Origin: a bacterium | GTDB taxonomy: Bacteria; Zhuqueibacterota; QNDG01; JAFGCO01 | Assembly: GCA_016930535.1 (NCBI GenBank) | Contig: JAFGGN010000085.1 | Span: forward strand, 39,281 to 103,280 | Direction: 5' to 3' | Length of the DNA: 64,000 nt | Part shown: one piece after another, positions 3,515-58,700 of the stretch | Layout of the letters: the number at the start of each line of letters is the position of its first letter | How positions within the stretch are numbered: position 1 is the first letter of the stretch | Made by a program: the position numbers and the translations under genes | Notes under the pieces: model-generated | What the model was told of the DNA's origin: nothing | The model's database searches: none | Seen by the model: the letters and a program-made list of their open reading frames with translations, nothing else

Positions 3515-3973
3515 TTACCATTGCATTTGAATCCGGGCAATCCTGATCGAGGAGACCGGAACTTCAATCATCTGCTGACCGTACTCAATAATGATTTTAT
3601 CCTGATCAGCGCCGCATAATTTGCCTTCAACCGAACGTTCATGCTCATTTTCAAAAAAATATACGTTCACTGAACGGCCGATGTTTTTCCTGAAATCCCT
3701 GACATCTTTCAGGGGACGATCCGTACCCGGAGAGGAAACTTCAAGACGGTACTGCTGTATTTCGGGAAACTCCGTATCCAGCAGTTCCGTCAGCTGTTTT
3801 GTTACACGTGTACAGTCGTCAATGCTGACACCGGTATCCCGGTCTATAAAGATCTGAAAGGAAGGTTTTGAACCGCCTCCCTTGATTCTGATCTCGACCA
3901 GTTCGCAATTCTCCTCTCTGATAACCGGTTCAATCATCTGTTTTAATGTTTCTCTGTCCAAATTACCTGCCAT
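3515..3973 (-). CDS. rimP: ribosome maturation factor RimP
   Basis: The ORF track gives 3515..4015. MAGNLDRETLKQMIEPVIREENCELVEIRIKGGG resembles the RimP N-terminus and the gene is immediately upstream of nusA. The start is ambiguous between 4015 and 3973; neither has a clear SD. Confidence 0.7.
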   Translation of the reverse strand: MAGNLDRETLKQMIEPVIREENCELVEIRIKGGGSKPSFQIFIDRDTGVSIDDCTRVTKQLTELLDTEFPEIQQYRLEVSSPGTDRPLKDVRDFRKNIGRSVNVYFFENEHERSVEGKLCGADQDKIIIEYGQQMIEVPVSSIRIARIQMQW

Positions 3974-30603: not shown

Positions 30604-33600
30604 TTATCTGACGAGCATCATTTTTCGTATGGCCACCCTGCCCGGGAACTCGAGTTTGTAAAAATAAATACCGGAAGACAGGGCCGTCCCGCGGTTCGAG
30701 AGGCCGGACCATCTGATTTCATACTCACCGGACTGCTGTTCCTGATTGATCAGGACGTTCACGCATTCACCCCGCATATTGTACACGCTCAGCTTGACAT
30801 GACCCGTACGGGGCAGCGAGTATTTAATCATTGTTACCGGATTGAATGGATTCGGATAATTCTGATACAGATGGAATTCGCGTGGTGCAACCGCATTCTC
30901 CAGCTGCTTCTGAACGAATTCCGGCGGACCGGCAATGCATTTCAGGAAACGGACATTGGGAACCTCATCCGGGGTTACCATGGCATAATCGTCCATGTCC
31001 GTGACATCGAGGGCAATGCCTTCCCGTTCGTCGACCAGCATGATCTTCCAGGATTCAGGCAGCGTCTGAACCATCTGCCAGGTCAGTTTGATCAGCTTCT
31101 TATTCAGAGAAGATTCCACGGCGATATCCCAGACAAAGCCCTCTTCCTGCGGCGAGCGGATGTCCGCCGCGTAGGTCCCGGGATGTCCGGCCCAGTCTGA
31201 ATGATCGAAGAACACGGAAATATACTCACCGATGGGCGGCGGCTCGACACGGTCCCTCAGATCCCATTCGGCTCTTGCATCCTGCCGTACACCGATATAA
31301 TTGTCGAGATCCTCCGCCGATTCGGCCCGTGCAGACAATTTCCATATCCAGTCGGATTCTGCCAGCGATTCCAGCACGCCTCCGCGTGTGGCCGCACCTT
31401 TTGCGAGCGCTGCGGATTCACGCGGCGGGACAATCAAATCGTTATAGGTTCTCCCGGCATTGTATATCCAGTAGCCGCCCCACGGATCGAGCGTGGGCCA
31501 GTCAAGCCGGTATCCCATGCCGTTATAGTAGTACAGCGTTTCCAATGAATCTGAAGTCAGGGCGCAGTCGTTCCAGTGCACCGTGAACGGGAAAGGCGAA
31601 CCGATCATGCTCCACTGCGGCCTGAGTGAAAAGCGGTAGGGACCGTTTGTGGAAACCGAAGCGCCTGCATTCACGTCCCACAGTTTCCGTGCCGCCGAAA
31701 TGACCCAGAATGCGCGTCCCTGATCGAATGCAAACACGAGGCTGTCCGCATAGGACAGGCTGTCGTCCATTTCCCAGTATGACGTATCCTTCCAGGTCAG
31801 GCAGCGCCATTCATAGGGATCCCAGACATTGTTGAATTCATCCAGCAGCACGGTTCCCGCATTGGCATCGTCCAGATCGGCCGGAACCGAAACCATGACA
31901 TACTTCTTTTTCAGGAACATGGCCGAGGTATCCGCAGTCAGTGAATTGAAACGCACACGCGCGGCCATCGGCCGGTTGATCGGATCGTACAGGGGATGCG
32001 TCGATGTGCGGCCGGATGTGACCATTTCCACATAAAATTCGAGACCCCGTTCCGTCATCTGGTCTGCGGGAACGATCGCCTGATACAGGGTCGGAACAAG
32101 CTGATCAGGCGTCGCTGTTAGTGTCTGATATCCTCTCTGTCCCCCCTGCCTGTAATGGAGATACACTTCTTTATCCGTCGTTGTGACTGGAACCGTGATC
32201 TGAACCGCCTGCTGCACGCCCTTCTGCGGCACGGTTGTATAGGATGCGGAAATACCGGTTCCCTTGAAGATCAGGTCCCAGGGCTGACGGGCGATGCTTG
32301 AAATTCTGATTTCATCCATGGTCCCGTCAAAAAAACCGGTGAGCTGGCCTGTTGCGGTTTCACGGGCCGCAAATACAAGCCTTCCCGGAGAGACGATGTC
32401 CGTATCCCCCGCATGCCACAAGCCCTGCAGTTCCACATTGCCGTCCAGATACAGGGTGGCCTGCTGGACCGTTCCGTCATACACGAATGCCGCGTGATGC
32501 CATACCCCGTCCGCCACGCAGGTGTTCCCCTTGCCGAATCCGTGCAGGGTCAGGAGCCCGTCCGTATCGATGATCAGGCCGTAATTGCTGCGGTTTTCCG
32601 AGCCGGATATATGGGGATCCTTGTGGAACAGCACCTGGTTGAGCGTGTCGGTTTTAAAGAAGCATTCGACCGTGAAACTTTCGGTGGACAAATCGAACTG
32701 AAGACCCGCATCATCCGCCACCCACATGTACTCGTCCACGCCGTTGAAGGACAAACCGCCGGAGAAATAAGCGGGATTTACGCGCGATCCCGTGCCGGCC
32801 ATGGTCCCGTTATGATTTCCGGTCGCATCCGCGACACTCAATCCGGTTTCATCGCAATGCCAGAGCGCCACCGTATACTGATCGAGCCCGTAGGGCACTT
32901 TGGGCCGGTAATCGATTCCCACGGCCAGTATCGGAACGCTGAGCATCGGCGTGTCCGGATCGTTGCTGAAAATCCTCAATGTATCCGTCACGGTTCTGAT
33001 TGTGTCCGGAACGAACTGGACGAACAGGTTGGTCGTTTCTCCTGCGGTCAGCGTGATTTTTGCCGGTGCCATCAGGAAAACGGACTGATTCGTGCGGATC
33101 GTATCGATCACGAGAGGAACGCCGCCTATATTCGACACTTCGATAATGCGGTTCGCGGAACTGCCGACCATGACGGTACCGAATTCGAGACGCTGTGCGG
33201 CCGTATAAATATTGGGAATGCCGACATTGAACTCCTCGGGCTGACGGTCGATATTCGAAAAACGGATTTCATCCAGATACCCGTTGAACCCGTGACCGGT
33301 ACCGTAATCACCGCCCAGAGCCAGATCCGCAACCGAACTGCGCAGCGTTCCGTTAAAAGCAACGGAATCCACGGCCACGCCGTTGACGTACAGCCTGAAT
33401 TTGTTCAGATCCCATGTGAGTGCCATCTGATACCAGGAATCGATGTTCATTTCAGTATCCGGAGGTCCGTACAATGTGTAGATCTGCCCGCCCGAACTGT
33501 ACAGGCGGATCACGAGGCCCTTGCCCGCGGTCAGCGTATCGCCGTACATGACTTCGTACTGCAGACTGGTGCCGCTGCCGCGCCGGAATAATGTGTAGAA

Positions 33601-36600
33601 ATTTTTGCCGGAGGGTTTGGCAGAAAGGCTGAACCAGGTTTCGAGGCTGAACGGAGACGATGCATAATTGAAAACCGGATTGTACGGAACCCGTACCCAG
33701 CCGGAACTGCCGAGAAACCTGAGCGATGACAATCCGAACTTTTTATAAATGTCGGACCAGGACAGGCCGCCGCCTTCAAAATATCCGACAAGGCCTTTGC
33801 CCGAAGCGTCGGGTATCGAATCCATTTCCACGGTTCCGTCCAGATGCCAGAGACCGGATGTATATGTGTCCGTCACGTAGGCGCCCAGATTGATGGTCTC
33901 GAATCCGTTCCCCGAAAGCGGCACGCGGATCAGGGACTGAAACTGATCCTGTGAACGGATAAACAGCGTATCCGTGTATGCCTGGGCATTCGTGGGCCTG
34001 AATCCGACCCAGATCAGTCGCTGGCCGGAGGAATTGATGCTGAATTCGGGTTCCGACACGGTGAAATGCGGATTCTTCGTGTACAGGCTGTCCACATAAA
34101 GGACGCCCGATCCCACATTGCGCACATACATATAGATATACTTTGAACGGTTGACATAGACATTGCCGAATGCGAGGGACCCGTAAGGTACCTGGATGCG
34201 TCCCGTATTGATGTTGAATTCCCACGGCTGACGCGCGATGCCCGAAAGCCGCATTTCGTCGAGTGTTCCGTGAAACGGCTTTGTCAGACCCGGATCGTTC
34301 CCAACCGTCGCTGTCAGCAGGCCAGTGGGCTCCGGCACGTCCGTCTCTTTCTCATCCGCCAAAAAGCCGTTCAGATAGAGCTTCAGATCCTCACCGTACG
34401 TCAGCGCACCGTGGTACCATTGCCCCGTTGTCAACGGGAATTCGGCATCCGACAGCAGGGTGTCGATCGTGACCGCATTTTCGGAGGACAGGCCCATCAG
34501 CCGGTTGTTACGCACGCTGAGCTCGAACACGATCCTGTCTCCTTCAGACAGCCGGAACAGCACGCCGGTGCCTTCCGGAATCTGATCGAGTTTGAACCAG
34601 GTCTCGATACTGAATCCGGGCCACTCTTCCACAGGCAGAAGATCCATGTTGTTCAGCTGCACGTTCACGATATCGTTTTCATTGAATACCAGTCCCTGCC
34701 CGAACCGTCCCATGCCTGTTCCTGAAACAGCCGCTCCGGTGACGGTGCCGTCCATATAACCATACAGGGATTCATCGGGAAGCGTTTCACCTTCGAGGGC
34801 ATTCATATGATACAGCATGAATGTGTAGTAATCAGGCTGGTATGCCGCCACATCGATGGTGTTCACACCCGTGCCGATCACTTTCAGCAGATGCGGACTG
34901 TTCGTCGCATCCGAATAGAATCTCAGTGTGTCCCTCACGGTTCCGGTTGTGGACGGTGCAAAACGAACCTCCATCCAATCCTCGCCCGGACTGATCCACC
35001 TCGGCAGGTTCGCTCCGTAGAACCGTCCCGATGTGGAGGTGGATTCGTTGACATAAACCGATGCAGTGCCCGCATTTACCACGCGTACCCACAGGGATCT
35101 CGACTGCCCGAGCACGACACTGCCGAAATGGACAGAATCCGCATCAATCACCAGCTGGCCCGTAAAATCACCGGAGAAATAATAAACGCCCCCGATGCCG
35201 TCGGCCAGTGCCAGGGTGTCCCCCATCACCTTGATGCCGTAACTCGACCCCGCCGTATGATAGTAACCGACTTCAGAGAATTCCTCCTCGTTGGATGTAT
35301 CGATCAGGCGCATGGTCCCCTGTCCGTCCGCAACAACGGCCACATTGTCATGAAAACTGACGTCATAGGCATACCCATCCGTATTGTACTGTCCTGCCGG
35401 AACGATATTTTCCAGATTTGAGACATTCAATCCGACCAGGCCATTCGGTCCGTCCGCCAGATAGATCCTCTCCGATCCCTCGCCCTGCAGTCCCACGGCC
35501 ATGGTATGACTGCTGCTCTTGTAGGATCCGACAATGGTCTGTGTCGGAATATTCACGACTTTCACGCCATTGGTATCGGCCGATACGTAGAGCCGGTTCG
35601 AACGGGCATCGGCTTCCACACCCACGGCCCGTATGCCGGTGACACCTTCGAGCATGCCCTGATTCAGGGGTTCGAAGGGATTGGTCACATCGATTTTTCG
35701 TACACCGGCGGTTCCCTCTGCCGCATAGGCATAGTCCCCGGCGACCGTGACATCCAAAAATTCACTTGCAGTTTGAAAATGCGTGATATAGGCCGGCTGC
35801 AGAGGATTGCTGACATTATAGAAAAGCAGGCCTCCTGGACCGTCCGCGATGATCAGCACGCTGCCGGCAAGGGCAAGCCCCTGGGCATTCTCCGTGTCCC
35901 AATGGGACCGGAGCGTCACCTGACTATCGTGCAGCTGCGAATTGTCCAGAATCCAGACACCGCTCTGTCCTCCTGCCACATACGTCGTATTGGCGGTCAG
36001 GACCAGGTCCATGGCACTCCCGCCGGTCATAATCTGCTCGTTCTCCTGCGGAGGAGCCACGGCCACGTCGATTTCCCTCAGTCCGTCGTTTCCGTCCGCC
36101 AGATAGGCATAGTCCGGTCCCAGGTAGACGGCGAGCGCTTCTCCGCCTGTATTGAGGGACGTGGCCTGATTCATCGTGGTCAGATCGATGACGCGAAGGC
36201 CGTAACCTTCATCGGATACGTAGGCTTTCTCGGCTCCGACATCCACAGCAATATCGCTCAGCAACGCATTGTCGCCGGCTTCCCACTGATCCGCAATCGC
36301 CATGTTCGACGGATTGGTCACATTGACGGCAAGAACACCGTGTGTTCTGTCCGCGACAAAAGCCTGCGTTCCCCGTACGGACACGCCAAAGGCCTTGTCA
36401 GGGGTTTTGACCGTATCCAGTCTGACAGGAGCCGCCGGATTGGTGATGTTCACGGAAACCAGACCGACTGCATCCACGGCCAGATAAGCTGTATTTCCGC
36501 TGACATAAACATCCTGGACCGGCGACGTGAACTGAAGGACGGCGACCTGGTCAAAATCGGATGTCCGGATCACGGAGAATCCCCAGCTGCCGTTGGCCAC

Positions 36601-36981
36601 GTAGATATAACCGTCCTGATAGGCCAGCCTGCGGACATCTCCGCCCGATGCCCATGTGCCTGCGAGCGTCGGATTGGTGATCAAGCTTCTGTCCAGCACA
36701 TAAACACCGGAATTCTGAACAGCTACGTAAACCTTGAATGACTGATAATAAATATCCTGGATCAGACCCGGAAACGTATACCTGGCGAAACGGTTGTCAT
36801 AATTTTCCGCATCCAGAATATCCAGATAGCTTCCGTTTCCCATGTGAAGCGCGTCGGCCGTGGTGAATATGGCCCGGCAGGGTCCGCTGGCCCAACGCGC
36901 CTGAAGCGACAGATTGTCGCTGTGCTGTGCAGAAACAGCGACGGTCACGGTCATCCATACGGTAAGAATAAGCCTTTTCAT
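30604..36981 (-). CDS. giant secreted protein B (2125 aa): LVIVD-repeat beta-propeller, about 3 choice-of-anchor-D/LamG modules, C-terminal T9SS sorting domain; paralog of giant A
   Basis: It has a signal peptide. LVIVD repeats include YAYLADGNDGLREIDV, LIIADGPGGLLFYNVSNPLQP and YAYAAEGTAGVRKIDVTNPFEP. A choice-of-anchor-D-like segment is VHFGSVVLGQSRSLWVRVVNAGTASV. LamG modules include YTFMLYHMN...WYHGALTY...LYLNG and YTVALWHCDETG...WHHAAFVYDG. The C-terminus QNYPNPFNPVTMIKYSLP...GIYFYKL is a T9SS sorting domain. The N-terminal 100 aa and the C-terminal 500 aa align with giant A. Confidence 0.8.
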   Translation of the reverse strand: MKRLILTVWMTVTVAVSAQHSDNLSLQARWASGPCRAIFTTADALHMGNGSYLDILDAENYDNRFARYTFPGLIQDIYYQSFKVYVAVQNSGVYVLDRSLITNPTLAGTWASGGDVRRLAYQDGYIYVANGSWGFSVIRTSDFDQVAVLQFTSPVQDVYVSGNTAYLAVDAVGLVSVNITNPAAPVRLDTVKTPDKAFGVSVRGTQAFVADRTHGVLAVNVTNPSNMAIADQWEAGDNALLSDIAVDVGAEKAYVSDEGYGLRVIDLTTMNQATSLNTGGEALAVYLGPDYAYLADGNDGLREIDVAVAPPQENEQIMTGGSAMDLVLTANTTYVAGGQSGVWILDNSQLHDSQVTLRSHWDTENAQGLALAGSVLIIADGPGGLLFYNVSNPLQPAYITHFQTASEFLDVTVAGDYAYAAEGTAGVRKIDVTNPFEPLNQGMLEGVTGIRAVGVEADARSNRLYVSADTNGVKVVNIPTQTIVGSYKSSSHTMAVGLQGEGSERIYLADGPNGLVGLNVSNLENIVPAGQYNTDGYAYDVSFHDNVAVVADGQGTMRLIDTSNEEEFSEVGYYHTAGSSYGIKVMGDTLALADGIGGVYYFSGDFTGQLVIDADSVHFGSVVLGQSRSLWVRVVNAGTASVYVNESTSTSGRFYGANLPRWISPGEDWMEVRFAPSTTGTVRDTLRFYSDATNSPHLLKVIGTGVNTIDVAAYQPDYYTFMLYHMNALEGETLPDESLYGYMDGTVTGAAVSGTGMGRFGQGLVFNENDIVNVQLNNMDLLPVEEWPGFSIETWFKLDQIPEGTGVLFRLSEGDRIVFELSVRNNRLMGLSSENAVTIDTLLSDAEFPLTTGQWYHGALTYGEDLKLYLNGFLADEKETDVPEPTGLLTATVGNDPGLTKPFHGTLDEMRLSGIARQPWEFNINTGRIQVPYGSLAFGNVYVNRSKYIYMYVRNVGSGVLYVDSLYTKNPHFTVSEPEFSINSSGQRLIWVGFRPTNAQAYTDTLFIRSQDQFQSLIRVPLSGNGFETINLGAYVTDTYTSGLWHLDGTVEMDSIPDASGKGLVGYFEGGGLSWSDIYKKFGLSSLRFLGSSGWVRVPYNPVFNYASSPFSLETWFSLSAKPSGKNFYTLFRRGSGTSLQYEVMYGDTLTAGKGLVIRLYSSGGQIYTLYGPPDTEMNIDSWYQMALTWDLNKFRLYVNGVAVDSVAFNGTLRSSVADLALGGDYGTGHGFNGYLDEIRFSNIDRQPEEFNVGIPNIYTAAQRLEFGTVMVGSSANRIIEVSNIGGVPLVIDTIRTNQSVFLMAPAKITLTAGETTNLFVQFVPDTIRTVTDTLRIFSNDPDTPMLSVPILAVGIDYRPKVPYGLDQYTVALWHCDETGLSVADATGNHNGTMAGTGSRVNPAYFSGGLSFNGVDEYMWVADDAGLQFDLSTESFTVECFFKTDTLNQVLFHKDPHISGSENRSNYGLIIDTDGLLTLHGFGKGNTCVADGVWHHAAFVYDGTVQQATLYLDGNVELQGLWHAGDTDIVSPGRLVFAARETATGQLTGFFDGTMDEIRISSIARQPWDLIFKGTGISASYTTVPQKGVQQAVQITVPVTTTDKEVYLHYRQGGQRGYQTLTATPDQLVPTLYQAIVPADQMTERGLEFYVEMVTSGRTSTHPLYDPINRPMAARVRFNSLTADTSAMFLKKKYVMVSVPADLDDANAGTVLLDEFNNVWDPYEWRCLTWKDTSYWEMDDSLSYADSLVFAFDQGRAFWVISAARKLWDVNAGASVSTNGPYRFSLRPQWSMIGSPFPFTVHWNDCALTSDSLETLYYYNGMGYRLDWPTLDPWGGYWIYNAGRTYNDLIVPPRESAALAKGAATRGGVLESLAESDWIWKLSARAESAEDLDNYIGVRQDARAEWDLRDRVEPPPIGEYISVFFDHSDWAGHPGTYAADIRSPQEEGFVWDIAVESSLNKKLIKLTWQMVQTLPESWKIMLVDEREGIALDVTDMDDYAMVTPDEVPNVRFLKCIAGPPEFVQKQLENAVAPREFHLYQNYPNPFNPVTMIKYSLPRTGHVKLSVYNMRGECVNVLINQEQQSGEYEIRWSGLSNRGTALSSGIYFYKLEFPGRVAIRKMMLVR

Positions 36982-45828: not shown

Positions 45829-47634
45829 CTACAACAGAAAATACACCATTTTTCGAAGCAGCTCGGGCTGAACCGGTTTGTTCACGGTCATGATGGCCCG
45901 ATGGCTGATATAATCGTACAGCCGGCCGGTTTCAACCTCGTATCCGGACATGATCAGAATAGGCAGGTCCTTGGTCTGATAACTTTCCTTTAATCGACCG
46001 ATCACTTCATAGCCGCTCATCCCCGGCATTTTCATGTCGAGAATGATCAGGTCCGGAATGCGCTGCTGGCGTATATAATCGAATACGGCCTGGCCGCTGT
46101 GGCAGAGATCGATATGCTGATAGCCGAAATGTTCCAGCAGTATCTGCACCTGTTCGGTCAGCTCGACGATATCGTCCACAACCAGTATGTATTTTTCCAT
46201 GCGCTCCCGGGTTTCCGGTATCAGCTGCTCACGGCACGTTTTCCATATCAGGTCGGGAGCCTGTACATTGTCCGGATAATTCACACTGCCATATGAAAAA
46301 TCAAGTTCCGCATCCGCGACCTCGAAGTAGATTTCCTTGATCAGACTGAAAAACTGTTTTTTAAATGCGGGCTGCGTTTCCCGGAAATCTTCGGCAAACG
46401 CGATGATTTCATTCGATTCCACAAACACGGGTGCAATATGTTTTCCCAGATTTCTCAGACGGTCCTCTATTTTCTGTGTGGCTCGCTCGATCGCTTCCCT
46501 GCCGACCATGGTCTGAATCGATTCGAGATCGTTCATGATCACCCGGTACATCCAGAAACTTTCATTGGATTTGGCCAGTCTGTTCTCGATGAAATCTTCC
46601 ACGACCAGGGAAGCGCCGTAAGCCGGAAGGCGGAATGTAAACGTGCTGCCTTTTCCTTCCTCGCTGACCGCCTCGATACGTCCGTGATGCAGCTCGACGA
46701 TCTTCTTCGATATGGCCAGTCCCAGACCGGAGCCCGTTTCCCCGGGCCGCGTGCTTTTCTCGAATTCCTTGAATTTATCGAAAATCAGCGGCAGTTCTTC
46801 AGGAGTAATCCCCTCTCCGGTATCTGAAACCGAACACAGATAATCACCGTTCTCCTCCGCCGTGGCTATTGATATTTTCCCTTCCAGCGTGAACTTGGTC
46901 GCATTGCCGATCAGATTGTTCAATACCTGTATGATGCGGTCCTTATCCGCATACACGGGCAGCTCCGCCTCGGACAGGGCCTGCTCCAGTATCAGGTTCC
47001 GTTTTTCGATGACGGGTAAAAACACATCTGCAGAGGTACGGACAATATCCACCAGATTGTTTTTCCGCTTGTTCATCTGTATCTTGCCGGCTTCGATTTT
47101 TGAAATATCGAGAAGCTCATTGACGATTTTTCTCAGCCGGTCGATGTTTCTGATACAAACGGAAAGGTATTTCTGCTGGGTTTCATTGACTTCACCCAGA
47201 ATGCCTTCATGTACCTGACAGACCGATTCCCGCATGGATGTCAGGGGCGTTCTTAATTCATGGGACACATTGCTCACGAATTCATCTTTCAGCCGGTCAT
47301 AGATCACACGTTCCGTAATGTCCCGTATGGTGATGAGAAACGCATCGATATCTTCCCATCGTATGTTCACGACATGCAGCTCCCCGGTGCCGCGTTCGCC
47401 GTTTTTTCTGAAAATGTCGATTTGTATGATATTGTCAGGCTGTATGGGATAATCAAACGGGCGGTCCAGAAGTGCATCCGGTTTTTTATTCATGAAAGAT
47501 GCGGCAGCCGGATTGACGAACCGGATGGTTCTTTTGCCGTCCACGACGACGATTCCGTCCTTGCTGTTTTCGACAATTGCCTGCAGACCGAGTATATTGC
47601 TGTTTTTATTGGCCATCTTCGGTTCCCGTTTCAA
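45829..47634 (-). CDS. hybrid sensor histidine kinase (PAS, HisKA, HATPase_c, C-terminal receiver)
   Basis: The H-box is VSHELRTPLTSMRE. N/G boxes include NLIGNATKF...DTGEGI...GSGLGLAI. The C-terminal REC is ILVVDDIVELTEQ...DLIILDMKMPGMSGYE. Confidence 0.8.
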   Translation of the reverse strand: MKREPKMANKNSNILGLQAIVENSKDGIVVVDGKRTIRFVNPAAASFMNKKPDALLDRPFDYPIQPDNIIQIDIFRKNGERGTGELHVVNIRWEDIDAFLITIRDITERVIYDRLKDEFVSNVSHELRTPLTSMRESVCQVHEGILGEVNETQQKYLSVCIRNIDRLRKIVNELLDISKIEAGKIQMNKRKNNLVDIVRTSADVFLPVIEKRNLILEQALSEAELPVYADKDRIIQVLNNLIGNATKFTLEGKISIATAEENGDYLCSVSDTGEGITPEELPLIFDKFKEFEKSTRPGETGSGLGLAISKKIVELHHGRIEAVSEEGKGSTFTFRLPAYGASLVVEDFIENRLAKSNESFWMYRVIMNDLESIQTMVGREAIERATQKIEDRLRNLGKHIAPVFVESNEIIAFAEDFRETQPAFKKQFFSLIKEIYFEVADAELDFSYGSVNYPDNVQAPDLIWKTCREQLIPETRERMEKYILVVDDIVELTEQVQILLEHFGYQHIDLCHSGQAVFDYIRQQRIPDLIILDMKMPGMSGYEVIGRLKESYQTKDLPILIMSGYEVETGRLYDYISHRAIMTVNKPVQPELLRKMVYFLL

Positions 47635-47648
47635 TGAACTCAGGGACT

Positions 47649-49433
47649 TTACGACTGTGCAGCAACCGCTGCTTCCGCGGGCAGCAGAATGGTGGCCGTT
47701 GTTCCCTCACCCTTTTTGCTTGAATAGTGAATATCTCCCTGATGGGCCTGAATGATACCGAAACACGCGGACAATCCCAGACCCGTTCCGTTTTCCTTGG
47801 TCGTGAAAAACGGATCAAAAATATGCGTCAGATCTTTTTCATCGATACCCGGGCCGTTATCCGAGATATCGATCTGTACAATATTGTCTCTTGCTGATGT
47901 TTCAATCGTGATCAGTCCGCCGGAAGCCATGGCTTCATAGGCGTTCTGCATCAAATTGACAAATACTTCCTGCATCTGTCTTTCATCGATCATAACCTGC
48001 GGCAAAGATGGGGCCAGTTTTCTGAGTATCTCGACATGCCCCTGAAAAAACTGTTTTTCAACAAGATCGATCACAAAATTCAGCGACTGATTTATATCCA
48101 TTGGCTGAAAATCACCCTTACCGGGCCTTGAAAACTGCAGCAGCCGCTTGACCACATCATTGATCCTCTGGCTCTGGTCGATGATCGTCTGAATATCCGC
48201 CTTGACGTCCTTGGCTTCCTCGAGATGGATTAAAGCGATCTGGGCACGCGTCGAAACGAGCATCAGTTGATTTTTGACCTCGTGTGCAATGTCCGCCGAC
48301 AATCTTCCCAGCTGAGACAGCCTCTGGGCGCTCTCGATTTTCTTCCGTTCGGTCATATCGCGGAACACACCGCGGAATCCCTGAAACAATCCGTGCTCAT
48401 CGAAAATACCCACGGTTTTCATTTCACCCACGATCCGCTTTCTGGTCTTGGTTTCAAGAATCAATTCGTGAATATCTTCACCGGAATCCAGAAGCTGCTG
48501 ACGCCGTTTCTTCGACAATTCAAGACTTTCAGGCGCCATGAGTTCCTGAAACGGCATGCCGATCAGTTCTTTTTTCGAAAATTCCAGTGCACGGATCATG
48601 GATCCGTTGATATAGTTCAGTATGCCGGTTTCGCTGCAGATAAACATCATATCCGTGGCGGTTTCCATGAAGGTGCGGAATTTCTCCTCGGATTCCCGGA
48701 GTATTTTTTCAATTTCCTTGCGTTCCGTAATATTCGTGACCACACTCTGCATGATCCCTTTTTTAAGATCCACGATGCTTGAGCTGATTTCAACCCATAT
48801 GCGTGTTCCGTCCTTCGCAATCAGCCATGATTCGTAACGGAGCGATCCGGTTTTTCTGCTCGTCTGAAAGGCTGCCTTGGATTTGGCCACTTCCTCTTCG
48901 ATCTGAAGATCGAGAAAAGGAATTTTAAGCAGTTCATTCCGGCGGTACCCGAGCAGATCGCACGCTTTTTTGTTCACATTCAGCATCTGACCTTCAAAAT
49001 CATAGATGAATACGGCATCGTTGGCATGTTCAAACAGTTTCCGGTAATAGGATTCCTTCTCCTTCAGATTGGCTTCATTGACCACATGAATCGCATTTTG
49101 ATCCGTGACATTATCGAGCGTTTCTTTGGCCCTGTGCAGCGAGTGCAGCATCTGATCGTTCAGTTTCGACATTTTTTCGATCTCGTCCAGGCCGTCCAGA
49201 TCGATCAGTGTTTCAAAATGCTCCTGATGCTGCAAAGTGAGGTTCCGGATCAGATCGGCAAAAGGGGCGCTGAGCCAATAGGCCGCGGCCAGGCCTGAAA
49301 GAATGAGCACAGCCGCCTGTAATGCAAAAACGGCCCATGCGGCATCCGTAATCAGCTGCATCAGCATGCCGCTGCCGCAGACGAGAACCGCTGTCGCTGC
49401 GAATACGAGCAGAATTTTTTGAAAGAGATTCAT
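47649..49433 (-). CDS. membrane sensor histidine kinase with two PAS domains
   Basis: Two N-terminal TM helices are followed by PAS segments. The HisKA H-box is DIAHEVKNQLMLV. HATPase motifs are NLMQNAYEAM...DNGPGI...GTGLGLS. Confidence 0.8.
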   Translation of the reverse strand: MNLFQKILLVFAATAVLVCGSGMLMQLITDAAWAVFALQAAVLILSGLAAAYWLSAPFADLIRNLTLQHQEHFETLIDLDGLDEIEKMSKLNDQMLHSLHRAKETLDNVTDQNAIHVVNEANLKEKESYYRKLFEHANDAVFIYDFEGQMLNVNKKACDLLGYRRNELLKIPFLDLQIEEEVAKSKAAFQTSRKTGSLRYESWLIAKDGTRIWVEISSSIVDLKKGIMQSVVTNITERKEIEKILRESEEKFRTFMETATDMMFICSETGILNYINGSMIRALEFSKKELIGMPFQELMAPESLELSKKRRQQLLDSGEDIHELILETKTRKRIVGEMKTVGIFDEHGLFQGFRGVFRDMTERKKIESAQRLSQLGRLSADIAHEVKNQLMLVSTRAQIALIHLEEAKDVKADIQTIIDQSQRINDVVKRLLQFSRPGKGDFQPMDINQSLNFVIDLVEKQFFQGHVEILRKLAPSLPQVMIDERQMQEVFVNLMQNAYEAMASGGLITIETSARDNIVQIDISDNGPGIDEKDLTHIFDPFFTTKENGTGLGLSACFGIIQAHQGDIHYSSKKGEGTTATILLPAEAAVAAQS

Positions 49434-50910: not shown

Positions 50911-53133
50911 TTACTCATCTTTCAGTTCCAGAAGCAGCCGACAGGTTTCACGGACCCGTTTGCTTTTATCGTTCAGCCCTTCCTGCACCAGATGCATGGC
51001 CTCTTTTGTATGCAGCCTGGCAATACTGGTAATGGCGGCACATCGCAGCCTGTCCCTTCTTGCCGTATTGAAAAACCCTTTATGCTCGAATATTTTGACC
51101 AGATACTCATACGGAGCCGATGATTTGACATTACCGCAAAGTTCGACAATCTGCTGCAGAAACCTGGGTTTGATAAAACCGCTCTGGCTGTATTTAAAGA
51201 GCCGGGCGGTCAATTCTTCATCGCCGGTTTCCAAGAGAACCAGAGCAGCCTGTTTTTTGACAGCTTCATGTTTTTCTTTTATGAAATGCCTGTAAATATC
51301 GTTCATTTCCTCATCATTTTCCGGTTGAAAATCCCGATAGGATTCCCACCGGATCTGTGGATTTGAATGATTCATCAGCCGTTTGGCGATCAGATGCGCT
51401 TTCTTTTCCGAACAGGTCCTCAGTATCTGAAAAAGATCCTTGGCAAGATGGGGTTCGGTATTTTCGAACCGGTCGATGACCTCTTTCACGATTCCCCGTT
51501 TCAACGGGCCAAACAGCATCCTGTATTTGCTTCGGTTGGCCGGATTCTTTTCTTCGAGATACGTATCCACCAGGAGTTTGACCGATTGCGGTTCCGCTTT
51601 TCGAAGAATATAGGCCACGTTCCTGAGCACGCGATTATCCGCCTGCGGCAGCATGGAAATCAGATGATGCAGGGTCACATTGTCGGTCACGCGTTCCAGT
51701 CCGGCCTGGATTTCCCTGGCCATCCGTTTGTCCCGATGCTGTTCCGGCCGGGTTTTCTCGGAGAAAAATTCGACAATTTCCTTAATGCGTTCCACATCCG
51801 AGTTATTGAGCAGATCCGGAAGAATGGTCTGGATTTTTCTCGAAAATTTATTGAATTCGTCCGCGTTGTTCTCGAGCCATAAAATATTCAGCAGCAGCCA
51901 GAGTTCTTCCTTTTTTAATTCTTCCTCCTCGACGGACTGAACGAATTTATTGATCAGCGGGGTCAGCTTGGCCACATAAACCAGCGTATCGATTTTCTGG
52001 TTCATGACCGCGTCCACCGTGATCTTTTGAAGCTGATTCATGAAATTGCTGTCAGGATGACGCTTAAATATGTCCTGTATGGACATCTGCAGTTTGGAGA
52101 GCGTATTCGGATTGATGATTCGCTTGCTGAAAAGCCGGTCGGCCACCATGTTCATCAAATTGTCGGATTTGTCCGCTTCCGGTGCGAGTTTATCGAATAC
52201 CTTCAGCAGATTCTCGTTGAACGTATCATCGTTGCTGATCAGGGACTCGATAAAATTGGCAATATAGGTTTCGGAAAAATCCTTGGTGATGGTCTCAGCC
52301 AGATCGAAGGTTTCATTTTCATCGACTGTTTTCTCGAAAAGAATATTGATCAGGTCCGGATTCAGCTGGGAAACGACATGCATCAGTTTGATTTTTAAAT
52401 CCTTGGCCTCGCCCTGGGACTTTTCTTCAAAATAGGCGCATATCTGCTGAATCACTTTACGCATTTGCTCGGCCGCTTCTTCATCCGTGGCCGTGGTGAC
52501 CGCTTCATGATAAATGGAATTCAGCGTCTGAACGGACTTGTCGGTATCCGTGAAAAAATCATCCAGAAATTTCATCTTGTTTTCCGGAAGATCCCCCTGC
52601 TTGGTATCCTTGGCGATTTCGATTAAAAACTGCCAGACCTTCACCTCCTCGGTCTCCCCCTCTGCCACGGTGGGAGCCTCCAGCAGTTCCGAATAATCGA
52701 TTTCCTTGATTATAATATGGGGATGTTCGCTCAACTGGCTGAGAATACCCCCGTTTTCACGAATGGTCTTGCGGTCGTTCCGTATCAGCTTGAAAAATGC
52801 AATGAGCTCCTCGGCAAAAACGCCCTGCTGAAAGGCCAGGGAGATCAGGCCGCGGGTATGGAGGTAATTGGCAACCTCTTCGGCAAAACCGCTCTTTTCA
52901 CCGATTTCTTCACCATTGAGAAACAGATCGTCTTTTGAAAATCCGATATCCAGCTGCTTGTGATCGGTCAGCCAGCGATCCAGCGCATTCTTAAAATTAT
53001 TAATGCTGTAATTGAATATGGGATGTTCCGGCGGATAAAATACGCTGTTCTTCAGGGCCAGCCGCAGGTTTTTAATCACGGATTGCGTGATCTTAAGTTC
53101 CTGAAGTTCATCTTGTTTTATGCTCTGTTCCAT
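50911..53133 (-). CDS. large cytoplasmic alpha-helical (possibly HEAT/ARM-like) hypothetical protein, first gene of the signalling operon
   Basis: 740 aa with no signal peptide. It is helix-rich and the C-terminal part has HEAT-like periodicity (NPQIRWESYRDF...DKSKRVRETCRLLLE). No catalytic motif was recognised. Confidence 0.4.
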   Translation of the reverse strand: MEQSIKQDELQELKITQSVIKNLRLALKNSVFYPPEHPIFNYSINNFKNALDRWLTDHKQLDIGFSKDDLFLNGEEIGEKSGFAEEVANYLHTRGLISLAFQQGVFAEELIAFFKLIRNDRKTIRENGGILSQLSEHPHIIIKEIDYSELLEAPTVAEGETEEVKVWQFLIEIAKDTKQGDLPENKMKFLDDFFTDTDKSVQTLNSIYHEAVTTATDEEAAEQMRKVIQQICAYFEEKSQGEAKDLKIKLMHVVSQLNPDLINILFEKTVDENETFDLAETITKDFSETYIANFIESLISNDDTFNENLLKVFDKLAPEADKSDNLMNMVADRLFSKRIINPNTLSKLQMSIQDIFKRHPDSNFMNQLQKITVDAVMNQKIDTLVYVAKLTPLINKFVQSVEEEELKKEELWLLLNILWLENNADEFNKFSRKIQTILPDLLNNSDVERIKEIVEFFSEKTRPEQHRDKRMAREIQAGLERVTDNVTLHHLISMLPQADNRVLRNVAYILRKAEPQSVKLLVDTYLEEKNPANRSKYRMLFGPLKRGIVKEVIDRFENTEPHLAKDLFQILRTCSEKKAHLIAKRLMNHSNPQIRWESYRDFQPENDEEMNDIYRHFIKEKHEAVKKQAALVLLETGDEELTARLFKYSQSGFIKPRFLQQIVELCGNVKSSAPYEYLVKIFEHKGFFNTARRDRLRCAAITSIARLHTKEAMHLVQEGLNDKSKRVRETCRLLLELKDE

Positions 53134-53493: not shown

Positions 53494-54837
53494 TCAAACC
53501 ACGCCCTGATCCATCATGGCGTTCGCGACTTTCAGAAATCCGCCGATATTGGCCCCGTTGACATAATCCACAAAACCGCTGTCCTGTTTTCCATACTTGA
53601 AGCATGTGGCGTGAATGGCCTGCATAATCTCTTTGAGCCGGCTGTCCACTTCCTCTCTTGACCAGTTCATCTTCATGGCATTCTGGGACATCTCAAGTCC
53701 GGATACGGCCACGCCGCCGGCATTGGCCGCTTTGCCGGGTGCGAAGAGCAGTTCCGCTTTCTGAAGCGCATGCACTGCATCCAGTGTACAGGGCATATTG
53801 GCGCCTTCGCAGACGCAAATGCATTTGTTCTCAATGAGACTGGCGGCGTCATCCGCATTCAGTTCATTCTGAATTGCACAGGGGATGGCGATATCGCAGG
53901 GTTGTTCCCACGGCCTTTTACCGGCAAAGAACCGTGCACCGGAATGCGCTTCCGCATAGGGTGCGATGACATCATTGTTGCTGGATCTCAGACGCACCAT
54001 GGTCGTGATCTTGTCTCCGGATACGCCGTCCTCATCGAGGATATACCCATCCGGACCGGACAGTGTGATGACCTTGGCTCCCAACTCGTTCAGTTTGAGT
54101 GCGACACCCCATGCCACATTGCCGAATCCGGACACGGCGACGCGTTTTCCCTTGAGCTGTTCGCCCCGTGTTTTCAGCATTTCCCCTGCAAAATAAACCA
54201 CGCCGAAACCCGTGGCTTCCGGACGGATGAGACTGCCGCCCCATTCAAGCCCTTTCCCGGTCAGAACGCCGGTGAATTCATTCTTCAGCTTTTTATACTG
54301 TCCGAACAGATATCCGATTTCGCGGCCACCGACACCGATATCACCCGCAGGCACATCCGTGTTCGGACCGATATACCGGTACAGCTCGTTCATGAAACTC
54401 TGGCAGAACCGCATGATCTCATGATCGCTCCGGCCCTTCGGATTAAAATCAGCACCGCCCTTGCCCGCTCCGAGAGGCAGATGGGTCAGACTGTTCTTGA
54501 ACGTCTGTTCGAGGGCCAGAAACTTCAGGCTGCTCAGATTCACGGACGGATGGAAGCGCAATCCCCCCTTATACGGGCCGATGGCACTGTTCATTTCAAC
54601 CCGGAATCCGCGGTTGATTCGTATTTCTCCCTGATCATCCATCCAGGGAACTCGAAACATAATGACCCTTTCGGGCTCGATCATCCGTTCAAATATTTTG
54701 GCTGCCTGATATTCGGGATACTGTTCATAAACCAGTGCGACGGATGCAGCGATTTCTTCGACAGCCTGATGAAATTCGACTTCGCCTGGATTGTTCTGAC
54801 GGACACTGGCCATGAGCTCCTTGACATAATCCGGCAT
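53494..54837 (-). CDS. gdhA: NADP-specific glutamate dehydrogenase
   Basis: GGLRFHPSVNLSSLKFLALEQTFKNSLTHLPLGAGKGGADFNPKG carries the catalytic-lysine GGxK motif of the Glu/Leu/Phe/Val dehydrogenase family. The start was trimmed from the track's 54972 to MPDYVKELMASV at 54837, which has an AAGGAGG RBS. Confidence 0.85.
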   Translation of the reverse strand: MPDYVKELMASVRQNNPGEVEFHQAVEEIAASVALVYEQYPEYQAAKIFERMIEPERVIMFRVPWMDDQGEIRINRGFRVEMNSAIGPYKGGLRFHPSVNLSSLKFLALEQTFKNSLTHLPLGAGKGGADFNPKGRSDHEIMRFCQSFMNELYRYIGPNTDVPAGDIGVGGREIGYLFGQYKKLKNEFTGVLTGKGLEWGGSLIRPEATGFGVVYFAGEMLKTRGEQLKGKRVAVSGFGNVAWGVALKLNELGAKVITLSGPDGYILDEDGVSGDKITTMVRLRSSNNDVIAPYAEAHSGARFFAGKRPWEQPCDIAIPCAIQNELNADDAASLIENKCICVCEGANMPCTLDAVHALQKAELLFAPGKAANAGGVAVSGLEMSQNAMKMNWSREEVDSRLKEIMQAIHATCFKYGKQDSGFVDYVNGANIGGFLKVANAMMDQGVV

Positions 54838-55047
54838 AATTGTCCTCCTTAAGGGAAAGGGTCCATCCATATCGAAACAGGTTGATGAGTGCAGCCTCAG
54901 CAAGCCGGGATATCCGGAAACCGGACACGGCCGGCTGATGAGATCGTCCTCATCGGAATATATGATCTGCATTTCAAAAAATCAAAGGAATTATCAGGAG
55001 GATTCATGAGAAATTGTTCTTGATTTTCTGCATTCAAAAATGTAAGT

Positions 55048-55065
55048 TTGTGAAACATTTCACAA
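55048..55065. promoter_or_regulatory. Rex operator TTGTGAA-ACAT-TTCACAA (perfect consensus palindrome)
   Basis: It matches the Rex box consensus TTGTGAAnnnnTTCACAA exactly. It sits 34 nt upstream of the rex start and about 210 nt upstream of the divergent gdhA start. Confidence 0.7.
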
Positions 55066-55098: not shown

Positions 55099-55728
55099 AT
55101 GGAACATCACCTGATTTCAGAAAAAACCGTCGAGCGGTTGATTTTATACAGGCGCATACTCCTGACAATCGATCCTGAAAAACAGAAAAACATCGTCTCA
55201 CATCAGCTGGCACTCCTGACCGGTGTAAAATCCCCTCAGGTCCGCAGGGACCTGATGGTGATCGGTTATTCGGGATCCCCTGCACGGGGCTACGATATCA
55301 GCTCCCTGATCGAAAGCATCGGTCATTTTATCGACGCACCTGTCAAACAGGGAATTGCGCTTGCAGGCGTCGGAAACATTGGAAGAGCCATCATCGATTA
55401 TTTCAAAGGCAGGCGGCCGAAGCTGGATATTTCGGCTATTTTCGATATCGATCCGGAAAAAATCAACCGTGTGCTCCATGGATGCAGGTGCTATCATATC
55501 GATCAGATGGAAGCAATTATCCGTGCCGGGAAAATCCATATGGGCATCATTACCGTACCTGCGGATTCCGCGCAGAGCGTTGCGGAGCATATGATCAGGG
55601 CCGGCGTGACCGGCATATTGAACTACGCTCCGGTCAAACTCGTGCATCCGGAAAATATTCATGTGGAAAACCGGGACATCACGCTCGTGATCGAAAAAGT
55701 GGCCTATTTTTCCCGCCAGGTCCGGTGA
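55099..55728 (+). CDS. rex: redox-sensing transcriptional repressor Rex
   Basis: The winged-helix N-terminus is RLILYRRIL. The Rossmann NADH-binding motif is GIALAGVGNIGRAII. The protein is 210 aa. The start MEHHL at 55099 has an AGGA RBS. Confidence 0.8.
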   Translation: MEHHLISEKTVERLILYRRILLTIDPEKQKNIVSHQLALLTGVKSPQVRRDLMVIGYSGSPARGYDISSLIESIGHFIDAPVKQGIALAGVGNIGRAIIDYFKGRRPKLDISAIFDIDPEKINRVLHGCRCYHIDQMEAIIRAGKIHMGIITVPADSAQSVAEHMIRAGVTGILNYAPVKLVHPENIHVENRDITLVIEKVAYFSRQVR

Positions 55729-55919
55729 CTGCTCCGATCGTTCTTGACTTTATGATAAATTTTATGCAAATTAGTAAGATAAGGACCATGGTTTGTCACA
55801 TTCCGTGAATCCTGATGCAATCCGGGGTTCGGAACCGGGTACTTGATCATCCCGGACTTCATCGAACCGTCACCTGAACCGAAGGGCAGTCCCGCTGCCT
55901 GACAGCAAGGGAGGAAAAC

Positions 55920-57977
55920 ATGATCCGCTTTTTCAAAACATGCACCATCATTGCCTTCATCCTGGCTTCCGGATCCGTCCCGGCCAGAGACACCCTCACG
56001 TATGAATTCCCAAGAATCATCGTCACTGCAAACCGGTACGAGAAGCAGCTGTTTGAAACGCATTTGCCTGCCGGCCTGATTCATGAAGCACGGATCTGGA
56101 ACTCGGGATATACCGGTCTGGGAGATATTCTCCGGACAGAAGCAGGCATATCACAGACACAGACCGGTCCCTGGAGCGAAAAACCCGTGATTCGCGGTTT
56201 GTCCGGTGCGCATGTCCTGACACTCGTGGACGGGTTGAAGCTCAACGTGCTCAGGGAATACGGGGACCATGCACCGCTTGTCGACGTGGACCAGATCGAA
56301 CGGATCGAGATTATACGGGGTCCGGCTTCGGTGCTTTACGGCTCGGAAGCGGTCGCCGGTGTCGTGAACATCATAACCAAATCGGTTCATGCTTCGCCGG
56401 AGAGGATGCTGCTGAAAAGTCAGTTCGGAACGCGGATGGCTTCGGTGAATAATCAGTGGAGCCAGTTTCTGCGGGTAGAAGGGAAATATGGAAAATCCGA
56501 CCTGATGCTGAATGTCACGCATCGCAGAGCAGGTGATGTCGAGACACCTTCCGGTCCGCTGAACAACACGGCCTTTTCAGGGATGACGGCCGATCTGAAA
56601 CTGGGTTTTCATATCAAAGCTGAGCAGCGGCTCTCATTGTCCGGTCATCTGACCCGAATGGACAATGTCGGAATTCCGATCAATCCCTACGCCAAAGAAG
56701 CGGCATTCAGCATGTACGATAAAAACCGGCTGCATGCCCGGTACTTCTGGCTGCCCGTGAACAAACGGATCACGCATCTGGAATTCGGAACTTATCATGA
56801 AACCGGTGAGCGCGCGTTCGATGCCCTGATTTATCATGTACCGAAAGGGCCGCTTTACGTGAACAACAAACTGAATGCACACAGGGATGTAATGACCTCG
56901 GGAGGCAATTTTCAGATCACACTGAAACTTTTCGACAGCAACCTCCTGACAGGCGGCATCGACATTTTTCAGGAAAAGGATAAAACAAGACGCATCGCGG
57001 ATGCACAGGTTGTCGATGCCCGTGATCAGGTCAAGGCGGATCCGCCCGCCGATCTGTCCCCGCCGACTCCGAACTCCGGACGTGCGGGTGCGGCCGGGTT
57101 CATGGAAGATGACTGGCAGATCATGTCCTGGCTGTCACTGAATTCCGGATTTCGTTTCGATGCGCTCGTGAGCGAAGCCCGGGGTACGGCCGGCACACTG
57201 ACCGAGTCGGACCTGCAGAAGACGGACCGTGATTTCAGCGGGAATCTCGGAGCCGTCATACGCCTGTCACCCGCTTCCCGGTTCACGATCAATCTGGGCA
57301 GGTCCTTCAGGGCACCTTCGCTGCAGGAACGTTTTTTCAGGGGAACGGCCCAGGTGGGATTTCTTGAAGGCAATCCTGCACTTCAAAGTGAAACCGGTTT
57401 CAGCCTTGATTTTGGCTTTCGCTGGAAGACCAGCCGGCTGGAGTCCTGGCTGAACGTGTTTCAGAACAGCCTGAACAATTTTATCGTCATGAAACCGGCT
57501 TCAGCGGCCAATGATACTTTTTTCTATGACAATGTCGGACATGCCGTACTTCGCGGGATCGAGTGGCAGGCCGCCTGGAGAATCGACACACACTGGTCCG
57601 TTTACGCGAATGCCGCATATACGCGCGGCAGGGACACCGGGCTGTCTGAGGATCTTCCCAAAATTCCTCCTCTGAACGGCCGGTCTGGCGTCCGCTTTGA
57701 GAACACGGCAGGAAACCGTTGGATTTCTATTTCAGGAGAATTTGCTGCCGCACAGAACCGCGTCACGGATAACGAACTGCCCACGGACGGTTACATGCTT
57801 CTGGACCTGGATTCGGGCCTGAACCTGCAATCCCTGATCGATCCGGGATTCCCATTGTTTGTTACTTTCAATATCCATAACCTGATGGATAAAAAGTATC
57901 GGGATCACATGTCCAATGTGACCTGGTGGTCCGCCCCGGGAAGAAATTTCATACTGGGAATACGCGGGAACTTTTAA
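55920..57977 (+). CDS. TonB-dependent outer-membrane receptor
   Basis: It has a signal peptide. A TonB-box-like PRIIVTANR lies near the N-terminus. The plug domain contains VIRGLSG...VLTLVDGLKLN and IEIIRGPASVLYGSEAVAGVVNIITK. The C-terminus is NFILGIRGNF (terminal Phe). The protein is 685 aa. Confidence 0.8.
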   Translation: MIRFFKTCTIIAFILASGSVPARDTLTYEFPRIIVTANRYEKQLFETHLPAGLIHEARIWNSGYTGLGDILRTEAGISQTQTGPWSEKPVIRGLSGAHVLTLVDGLKLNVLREYGDHAPLVDVDQIERIEIIRGPASVLYGSEAVAGVVNIITKSVHASPERMLLKSQFGTRMASVNNQWSQFLRVEGKYGKSDLMLNVTHRRAGDVETPSGPLNNTAFSGMTADLKLGFHIKAEQRLSLSGHLTRMDNVGIPINPYAKEAAFSMYDKNRLHARYFWLPVNKRITHLEFGTYHETGERAFDALIYHVPKGPLYVNNKLNAHRDVMTSGGNFQITLKLFDSNLLTGGIDIFQEKDKTRRIADAQVVDARDQVKADPPADLSPPTPNSGRAGAAGFMEDDWQIMSWLSLNSGFRFDALVSEARGTAGTLTESDLQKTDRDFSGNLGAVIRLSPASRFTINLGRSFRAPSLQERFFRGTAQVGFLEGNPALQSETGFSLDFGFRWKTSRLESWLNVFQNSLNNFIVMKPASAANDTFFYDNVGHAVLRGIEWQAAWRIDTHWSVYANAAYTRGRDTGLSEDLPKIPPLNGRSGVRFENTAGNRWISISGEFAAAQNRVTDNELPTDGYMLLDLDSGLNLQSLIDPGFPLFVTFNIHNLMDKKYRDHMSNVTWWSAPGRNFILGIRGNF

Positions 57978-58172
57978 GGCATAATTATTGTAATATAATA
58001 AGATCGGCCGGGGGCCTGTTACCCACAAATCTCTCCCTCCCACAGGTCCTCGGCCGTTTTTATTCCGGTCATTCCCGAATCATTTCTCCATCGTAAACCG
58101 GTCTCTTCATTGCGGCCGAAACCGGAGCATGTATCCGGCAGCGGACATTTAAAAAAAAGCAGGACCATGCAT

Positions 58173-58700
58173 ATGAAAAATGCCGTTTATATCGCACGCC
58201 TGGGATTGATCATCGCACTGACGCTGGTGGTGCAAATCGCAGGACTTCCCCAGCCTGTCACCGGTCCTCTGATCAATGCACTGCTCTTTCTGACAACGAC
58301 TGTACTGGGATTGTCTGCCGGATTGATACTCGGATCATTCACACCGCTCGCCGCCCTGATCAGGGGCCAGCTCCCGGCCGTGCTTGCACCCATGATTCCG
58401 TTCATCATACTCGGAAACGCAGTGCTTGTATTTGTCTTTGACATGACCCGGAAGATGCTTCGCAGAAGATGGACATCCGGACCTGATTTCTGGGCGGCCG
58501 TGATCCTGTCTGCAGCCGCAAAATTTCTGCTGCTGGCCGCTTCGGTCAAATGGATGGTTCCCCTGATTACCGGGCATGCGCTTCCCGCCAAGCTGGAACT
58601 GGCCATGACTTTTCCGCAGTTCCTGACCGCACTTTCAGGCGGCCTGATCGGTTATTTTCTTATCCGGATATGGAAAAAGGCGGAGTATAAACAGCAGTGA
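58173..58700 (+). CDS. small polytopic membrane protein (ECF-transporter S-component-like, unassigned)
   Basis: About 175 aa from MKNAVYIARLGLIIALTLVV, with about 5-6 TM helices rich in G/A/L/P. Family not resolved. The ORF track start 58110 was trimmed. Confidence 0.4.
   Translation: MKNAVYIARLGLIIALTLVVQIAGLPQPVTGPLINALLFLTTTVLGLSAGLILGSFTPLAALIRGQLPAVLAPMIPFIILGNAVLVFVFDMTRKMLRRRWTSGPDFWAAVILSAAAKFLLLAASVKWMVPLITGHALPAKLELAMTFPQFLTALSGGLIGYFLIRIWKKAEYKQQ

Follow-up and report, generated by a model that had tools for sequence, protein, structure and literature searches.

Two genes stand back to back in the DNA of an uncultured KSB1-like bacterium that we analysed over 64,000 nt (the window): gdhA, for a glutamate dehydrogenase (GDH), and rex, for a redox-sensing repressor. 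Between them lies an inverted repeat, which raises the question of what it controls: the repressor gene, the dehydrogenase gene on the other side, or the transport genes that follow rex. Our analysis indicates that the repeat is very probably the operator by which Rex represses its own gene. The features that frame the question are the following.

55048 to 55065, no strand assigned: predicted Rex operator, an 18-bp inverted repeat (TTGTGAAACATTTCACAA) that matches the Rex consensus perfectly
53494 to 54837, minus strand: gdhA, hexameric glutamate dehydrogenase of 447 aa (NCBI MBN1782137.1; Pfam ELFV_dehydrog_N and ELFV_dehydrog)
55099 to 55728, plus strand: rex, redox-sensing repressor of 209 aa, an exact match to NCBI MBN1782138.1 ("Rex [bacterium]")

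The repeat agrees with the general Rex consensus, TTGTGAA-N4-TTCACAA (TTGTGAANNNNTTCACAA), at each of its 14 specified positions, so that the match at every half-site position reported by the first-pass annotation is borne out. Its arms are perfect 7-nt inverted repeats around a central ACAT that is not self-complementary. With up to one mismatch allowed, the consensus occurs once in the whole 64 kb, at this place, and not at all in 100 dinucleotide-preserving shuffles of the window; the simple expectation for a perfect 14-position match is 64000/4^14, or about 2.4e-4. Matches with three mismatches occur at three other places (40294, 48466 and 61824), all within long ORFs, against a chance expectation of 3.76. 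The consensus scan found no further Rex site above chance in the 64-kb window, nor is there a convincing weaker second Rex-like repeat beside the first in this DNA. Because the perfect match is unique, the shuffles yield none and the three-mismatch matches stay at chance level, the repeat is far beyond what chance would be expected to produce. It sits in the 261-bp intergenic region shared by the divergent gdhA and rex, 33 nt before the ATG of rex and 210 nt before that of gdhA; the first-pass annotation had its position upstream of rex right, and its gap of 34 nt differs trivially from our count. By its sequence, the repeat is a real Rex operator of the textbook type, an instance of a well-known regulator-operator pair.

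The protein encoded downstream of the operator passes the NCBIfam model for Rex (NF003995, 198.7 bits against a cutoff of 126) and carries the Pfam domains Put_DNA-bind_N (PF06971, 44.9 bits) and CoA_binding (PF02629, 66.2 bits), which gives it the N-terminal winged-helix DNA-binding domain and the C-terminal Rossmann NAD(H) domain that characterize the family. Residues 6-200 align to the Thermus Rex of the DNA complex 3IKT (E 9e-32). The DNA-contact residues of Thermotoga Rex (R12, K43, Q46, R48, K49, G58 and Y64; PMC8836258) have plausible counterparts in R13, K44, Q47, R49, R50, G59 and Y65, a correspondence drawn by eye through the Thermus alignment rather than from a direct alignment; K44, Q47, R49 and R50 are the recognition-helix residues of the window Rex. 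The NAD(H) features are also kept, with GxGxxG present as GVGNIG, the Asp and Lys of FDIDPEK, and the Tyr of IIDYF. In the wing, SPARGY stands where the Thermus protein has TRGVGY, and the minor-groove Arg-Gly is displaced by two positions. Judged by these models and motifs, the gene is a bona fide rex. An earlier start at TTG 55069 was rejected since the family models and the NCBI protein begin at 55099. The named relatives of Rex, and those of the receptor described below, belong to candidate division KSB1 or Zhuqueibacterota.

If Rex represses its own gene from this repeat, the repeat should stand in a meaningful relation to the rex promoter, for which we propose the following position.

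55020 to 55048, plus strand: predicted rex promoter, with a -35 TTGATT at 55020-55025, a 17-nt spacer and a TG-extended -10 TAAGTT at 55043-55048

The operator begins on the final T of this -10 hexamer. We read the promoter from the window sequence together with an alignment of relatives; TTGATT and TAAGTT are too weak to be called by a consensus promoter scan, and the start site of rex, at about 55055, is therefore an inferred one. In the relatives' loci L076, L077, L079, L162, L165 and L166, a TTGnnn-17-TAnAnT promoter with a sigma-70-type -10 hexamer is followed by the repeat after 1-3 nt. A Rex-like repeat stands before rex in most relatives: of 79 rex loci taken from genomes and metagenomes, 49 have a Rex site with up to three mismatches within 150 nt upstream of the gene, compared with 0.9% of the control windows drawn from the same 79 loci (n=1490). 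These sites lie mostly about 21-56 nt from the start codon, and the loci that carry them include Planctomycetota, Thermoleophilia and Myxococcota besides KSB1-like bacteria. In the close relatives L075, L076, L077, L079, L162, L165 and L166, the distance to the rex ATG is 21-44 nt, and in the closest four (Rex identity 61-73%) it narrows to 28-36 nt.

L075, Rex 73% identity: rex-upstream repeat TTGTGAAATGTTTAACAT
L076, Rex 68% identity: rex-upstream repeat TTGTGAATTTTTTCACAC
L077, Rex 63% identity: rex-upstream repeat TTGTGAAAAAATAAACAA
L079, Rex 61-62% identity: rex-upstream repeat CTGTGAAAATATTAACAA

The locus L161, whose rex has a shorter N-terminus, has no recognisable Rex site upstream. 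In L076 (626-643), L077, L079 and L165, a second, weaker Rex-like repeat abuts the first operator (for example CGTTAATTAAATCACAA), which suggests that these loci have tandem operators.

As far as alignment can tell, this promoter-operator architecture is common across the KSB1-like group. The conserved placement of the repeat before rex, and directly after the -10 in close relatives, lends good support to rex autorepression, as do the Rex family models that the protein passes and the conservation of the site's position in several phyla; the autoregulation that the first-pass annotation had taken the operator to imply thus gains in strength. In the mechanism that we propose, dimeric Rex carrying NAD+ would bind both TTGTGAA arms; since the operator overlaps the predicted -10 by one base, the bound dimer would cover the transcription start of rex and block RNA polymerase, as is usual for a repressor. 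At a higher NADH/NAD+ ratio, bound NADH would close the dimer and release Rex from the DNA, so that rex would be transcribed along with anything reached downstream by read-through.

Comparable arrangements have been described in other bacteria. A Rex site has been predicted, in the same geometry, 38 bp upstream of the rex-hydrogenase operon of Caldithrix abyssi (PMC5317091), and gel shifts have demonstrated that rex of Caldicellulosiruptor bescii is autoregulated (PMC6391272). With these the window shares an 18-bp TTGTGAA-N4-TTCACAA operator 30-40 bp before rex, a repressor built from a winged helix and a Rossmann domain, and predicted repression at low NADH/NAD+. In place of hydCBA, the genes after rex in the window encode a TonB-dependent receptor and an ECF S-like protein; the host is an uncultured KSB1-like bacterium, and its operator is a prediction from sequence. 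The Rex boxes of Staphylococcus aureus and Bacillus, TTGTGAAW4TTCACAA (PMC2883068), have half-sites identical to ours, but the spacer ACAT contains a C and departs from the W4 refinement; their targets are genes for fermentation and anaerobic respiration, whereas the operator of the window is followed by rex plus the receptor. For an uncultured KSB1-like bacterium, the repeat provides a Rex autoregulatory site that could seed a Rex weight matrix in a phylum without genetics.

Regulators of the CRP/FNR family recognize the core consensus TGTGA-N6-TCACA, and the repeat contains such a core (TGTGA-AACATT-TCACA), so that it might be read as a site for one of them. However, the repeat also agrees with the Rex consensus at its flanking T and A, the site travels with rex over KSB1-like, Planctomycetota, Thermoleophilia and Myxococcota loci, and the variant right arms found in relatives, TTAACAA and TAAACAA, break the CRP core while fitting Rex variants. 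Moreover, no CRP-type domain occurs among the 15 neighboring proteins that we scanned, and we consider a CRP/FNR site highly improbable. Least credible of all is a palindrome that arose by chance and has no function: the AT-rich intergenic setting is the one point in its favor, and the shuffle statistics (no match in 100, with an expectation of about 2e-4), together with the positional conservation in relatives, exclude it for practical purposes.

Beyond autoregulation, the first-pass annotation had placed gdhA under redox control through the shared intergenic region, which would tie nitrogen assimilation to NADH/NAD+, and had labelled its product an NADP-glutamate dehydrogenase. The label deserves separate attention. 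The enzyme scores 748.9 bits with NCBIfam NF010633 and 705.8 bits with NF006929; it passes the NADP-specific NCBIfam model, and NCBI names it NADP-specific. Compared along the full sequence, solved enzymes of the NADP type (535-538 bits) and of the NAD type (519 bits) are equally close to it. Its coenzyme-domain segment is closest to the NAD+-specific GDH of Clostridium symbiosum (119.8 bits vs 97-99 for NADP types), and at the equivalents of F238, A242, P262 and D263 of that enzyme it has F, A, P and D (GFGNVA...SGPDG). Changing F238, P262 and D263 of the C. symbiosum enzyme toward their Escherichia coli counterparts increased NADPH use by a factor of more than 100, and replacing A242 had a negligible effect on coenzyme use (PMC3157743). 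The NADP-type E. coli enzyme has Ser at the equivalents of both F238 and P262, where the window enzyme has F and P. The window GDH is thus like the C. symbiosum enzyme (1BGV/1HRD) in having the same residues at coenzyme positions tested by mutagenesis, and unlike it in being as close overall to NADP-type enzymes and in its NCBI name. Since its coenzyme fingerprint is that of the NAD+-specific C. symbiosum type, the NADP label is doubtful; the NADP-specific annotation is probably a mislabel, and the coenzyme may well be NAD(H).

That fingerprint would suit a bidirectional operator, at which Rex would also control the divergent gdhA and couple GDH expression to the NADH/NAD+ ratio, in that the enzyme may use the very nucleotide sensed by Rex. 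The two genes share one intergenic region, and their divergent arrangement recurs in L076 and, with a remnant of rex, in L162. Against such control stands a promoter that gdhA appears to have for itself.

54957 to 54985, minus strand: predicted gdhA promoter, TTGATT-17-TATATT (promoter scan, 9 of 12 positions)

The same block is kept in L081, L076 and L162. The operator lies 62 nt beyond its -35, and the centre of the operator falls about 107 nt upstream of the gdhA start predicted near 54950, a position from which a repressor does not block polymerase; no weaker Rex-like site lies nearer to gdhA, the best candidate having five mismatches. L081, which holds the closest gdhA relative (82% identity), has the receptor directly divergent from gdhA and keeps the same gdhA promoter but lacks both rex and a Rex site. 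In the 80 gdhA loci from metagenomes that are closest to ours (65-82% identity, together 420 kb), we found no Rex site at up to two mismatches and no rex gene within 2.5 kb; most of these loci come from unknown organisms that may be distant, so the weight on this point falls mainly on L081, L076 and L162. A Rex site occurs near gdhA only where rex or its remnant adjoins (L076, L162), which argues that the site belongs to rex. Among the papers that we searched, which did not include the main comparative study of Rex regulons, none names GDH as a direct target of Rex. With the operator outside the gdhA promoter and the site not conserved before gdhA, membership of gdhA in the Rex regulon finds no support, and we consider a bidirectional operator very unlikely. 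The redox control of gdhA put forward in the first-pass annotation was not upheld, and the operator reveals no new link between redox sensing and nitrogen assimilation.

As to the gdhA transcript itself, the ATG at 54837 is preceded by AGGAGG, and a longer ORF start at 54972 was rejected because the family models and the NCBI protein begin at 54837. The predicted leader is about 113 nt long and contains, within 54870-54950 on the minus strand, a GC-rich hairpin insertion of about 60 nt that is absent from L081, L076 and L162. The folding z-score of the leader (-1.78) is not significant.

On the other side of the operator, autorepression of rex leaves room for effects further downstream, where the following features lie.

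55744 to 55772, plus strand: promoter-like block before the receptor, TTGACT-17-CAAATT, conserved in L075, L081 and L161
55871 to 55914, plus strand: conserved leader of about 44 nt before the receptor ATG, CACCTGAACCGAAGGGCAG-TCCCG-CTGCCTGACAGCAAGGGAGG, with a hairpin at 55884-55900
55920 to 57977, plus strand: TonB-dependent receptor of 685 aa (NCBI MBN1782139.1; Pfam Plug and TonB_dep_Rec_b-barrel)
58110 to 58700, plus strand (bounds of the ORF; the gene itself probably starts further downstream): ECF-transporter S-component-like membrane protein (Pfam ECF_trnsprt, 29.2 bits, under the cutoff of 30.7)

The receptor scores below the cutoff of every specific NCBIfam receptor family. In L161-L167, the ECF S-like family comes after it, with at most one small gene in the gap. 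In the window, rex and the receptor gene lie on the same strand, 191 nt apart, with no predicted terminator-like site from 55729 to 55919, so read-through from rex into the receptor gene is possible. The operator might then govern a rex-receptor-ECF S-like operon and place uptake under Rex control. Consistent with this, rex is linked to this receptor family in many relatives and directly adjacent to it in L075 and L161. In L165 and L166, rex comes first and the receptor next to last in a tight one-strand cluster (rex-hydCBA-sensor-regulator-receptor-ECF S-like gene); in L163 and L164, the receptor closes the same hydrogenase and signaling genes, with rex on those contigs inferred; and in L162, no separate receptor promoter is seen after the rex remnant. 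However, the 191-nt gap of the window holds both the promoter-like block, with a receptor start predicted at about 55779, and the leader, and their retention in L081, which has no rex, points to a receptor that is an independently expressed unit. Of the co-transcription that had been suggested for the receptor and rex, the shared strand and the lack of a predicted terminator stand, and the conserved promoter-like block and leader in the gap weigh against it; co-transcription is possible and not required. We regard Rex control of uptake through such an operon as a tentative and rather doubtful reading.

The leader merits a description of its own. Copies occur in the window (55871-55914), L075 (980-1023), L081 (2290-2247, minus strand), L161 and L162 (3952-3995), all of them members of one receptor subclade, and across these five loci the alignment has a mean column identity of 83%. 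The shared pattern is CACCTGAAC..GGGC-hairpin-GCCTGACAGCAAGGGAGG, in which one stem pair covaries as AU, GC and UA. It is possible that CCU:GGG pairing masks the ribosome-binding site, and the leader could be an undescribed cis-regulatory RNA. Comparison of the leader with Rfam gave no relevant match even at E up to 10, permissive Rfam searches with the rex-receptor gap and the gdhA-rex region returned matches at chance level only, and the whole window at gathering thresholds yielded only a tRNA. The folding z-score of the rex-receptor gap (-1.08) is not significant.

How a repressor gene and a receptor gene came to be neighbors may be explained by the more distant relatives. The arrangement in the window resembles the front part of an [FeFe]-hydrogenase cluster led by rex, of the type found in KSB1/Zhuqueibacterota and in Caldithrix, minus the hydrogenase genes. 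The full rex-headed cluster occupies one strand in L165 (969-12634) and L166 (1583-12680), in the order rex, hydC, hydB, hydA, a HydS-like sensory hydrogenase-kinase, response regulators, the receptor family and the ECF S-like gene; some clusters have a TM1266-like gene between the response regulators and the receptor, and L163 and L164 show the distal part of the cluster. Between its rex and receptor genes, the window has none of the hydrogenase and signaling genes. Its Rex (56-60% identity) and receptor (41-50%) are of the same families as those of the clusters, and its operator lies directly after the -10 of the predicted rex promoter, as in L165 and L166. What sets the window apart from the clusters, besides the missing genes, is that its receptor has gained or kept a promoter-like block and leader of its own.

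The locus L162 (GCA_016932575.1) may represent a further stage. It has a gene order in common with the window, namely a HEAT-repeat gene, gdhA, rex (here degraded), the receptor and the ECF S-like gene. Within 3646-3950, the rex promoter is intact and is followed by a near-perfect operator (TTGTGAAAATATTCACAT) at 3675-3692, and rex itself is an in-frame remnant that matches residues 1-30 and 110-156, without the DNA-binding helix and without the GxGxxG motif; the receptor comes directly after it. Five to nine loci underlie the simplest reading, in which rex and the receptor would remain from a former rex-hydrogenase-receptor cluster that lost its hydrogenase genes in the subclade and, in some members, later lost rex as well. 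The company kept by the receptor and the ECF S-like protein suggests that the pair is an uptake system functionally tied to [FeFe] hydrogenase.

This history invites a more far-reaching proposal, in which the operator would be the surviving head of the cluster and Rex would still gate the receptor and ECF S-like pair by read-through, possibly in coupling with the NAD-type GDH as well. We consider it unlikely; were it true, redox state would be coupled to the uptake of some cofactor or metal that the hydrogenase needs. Possibly worth more than the operator itself are the findings made around it: the association of the receptor and ECF S-like pair with rex-hydrogenase clusters, the unclassified leader and the GDH that is probably mislabelled NADP-specific.

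Other genes of the window may be recorded here. Just beyond gdhA on the minus strand, the stretches 45829-49433 and 50911-53133 encode two PAS-domain histidine kinases, of which one is a hybrid that includes a receiver domain, as well as an HD-domain protein and a 740-aa HEAT-repeat protein, the gene for the latter being syntenic with L162. Two giant ORFs, at 20489-28033 (2514 aa) and 30604-36981 (2125 aa), belong to one minus-strand gene row, and a protein neighboring the rex locus carries a type IX secretion sorting domain.
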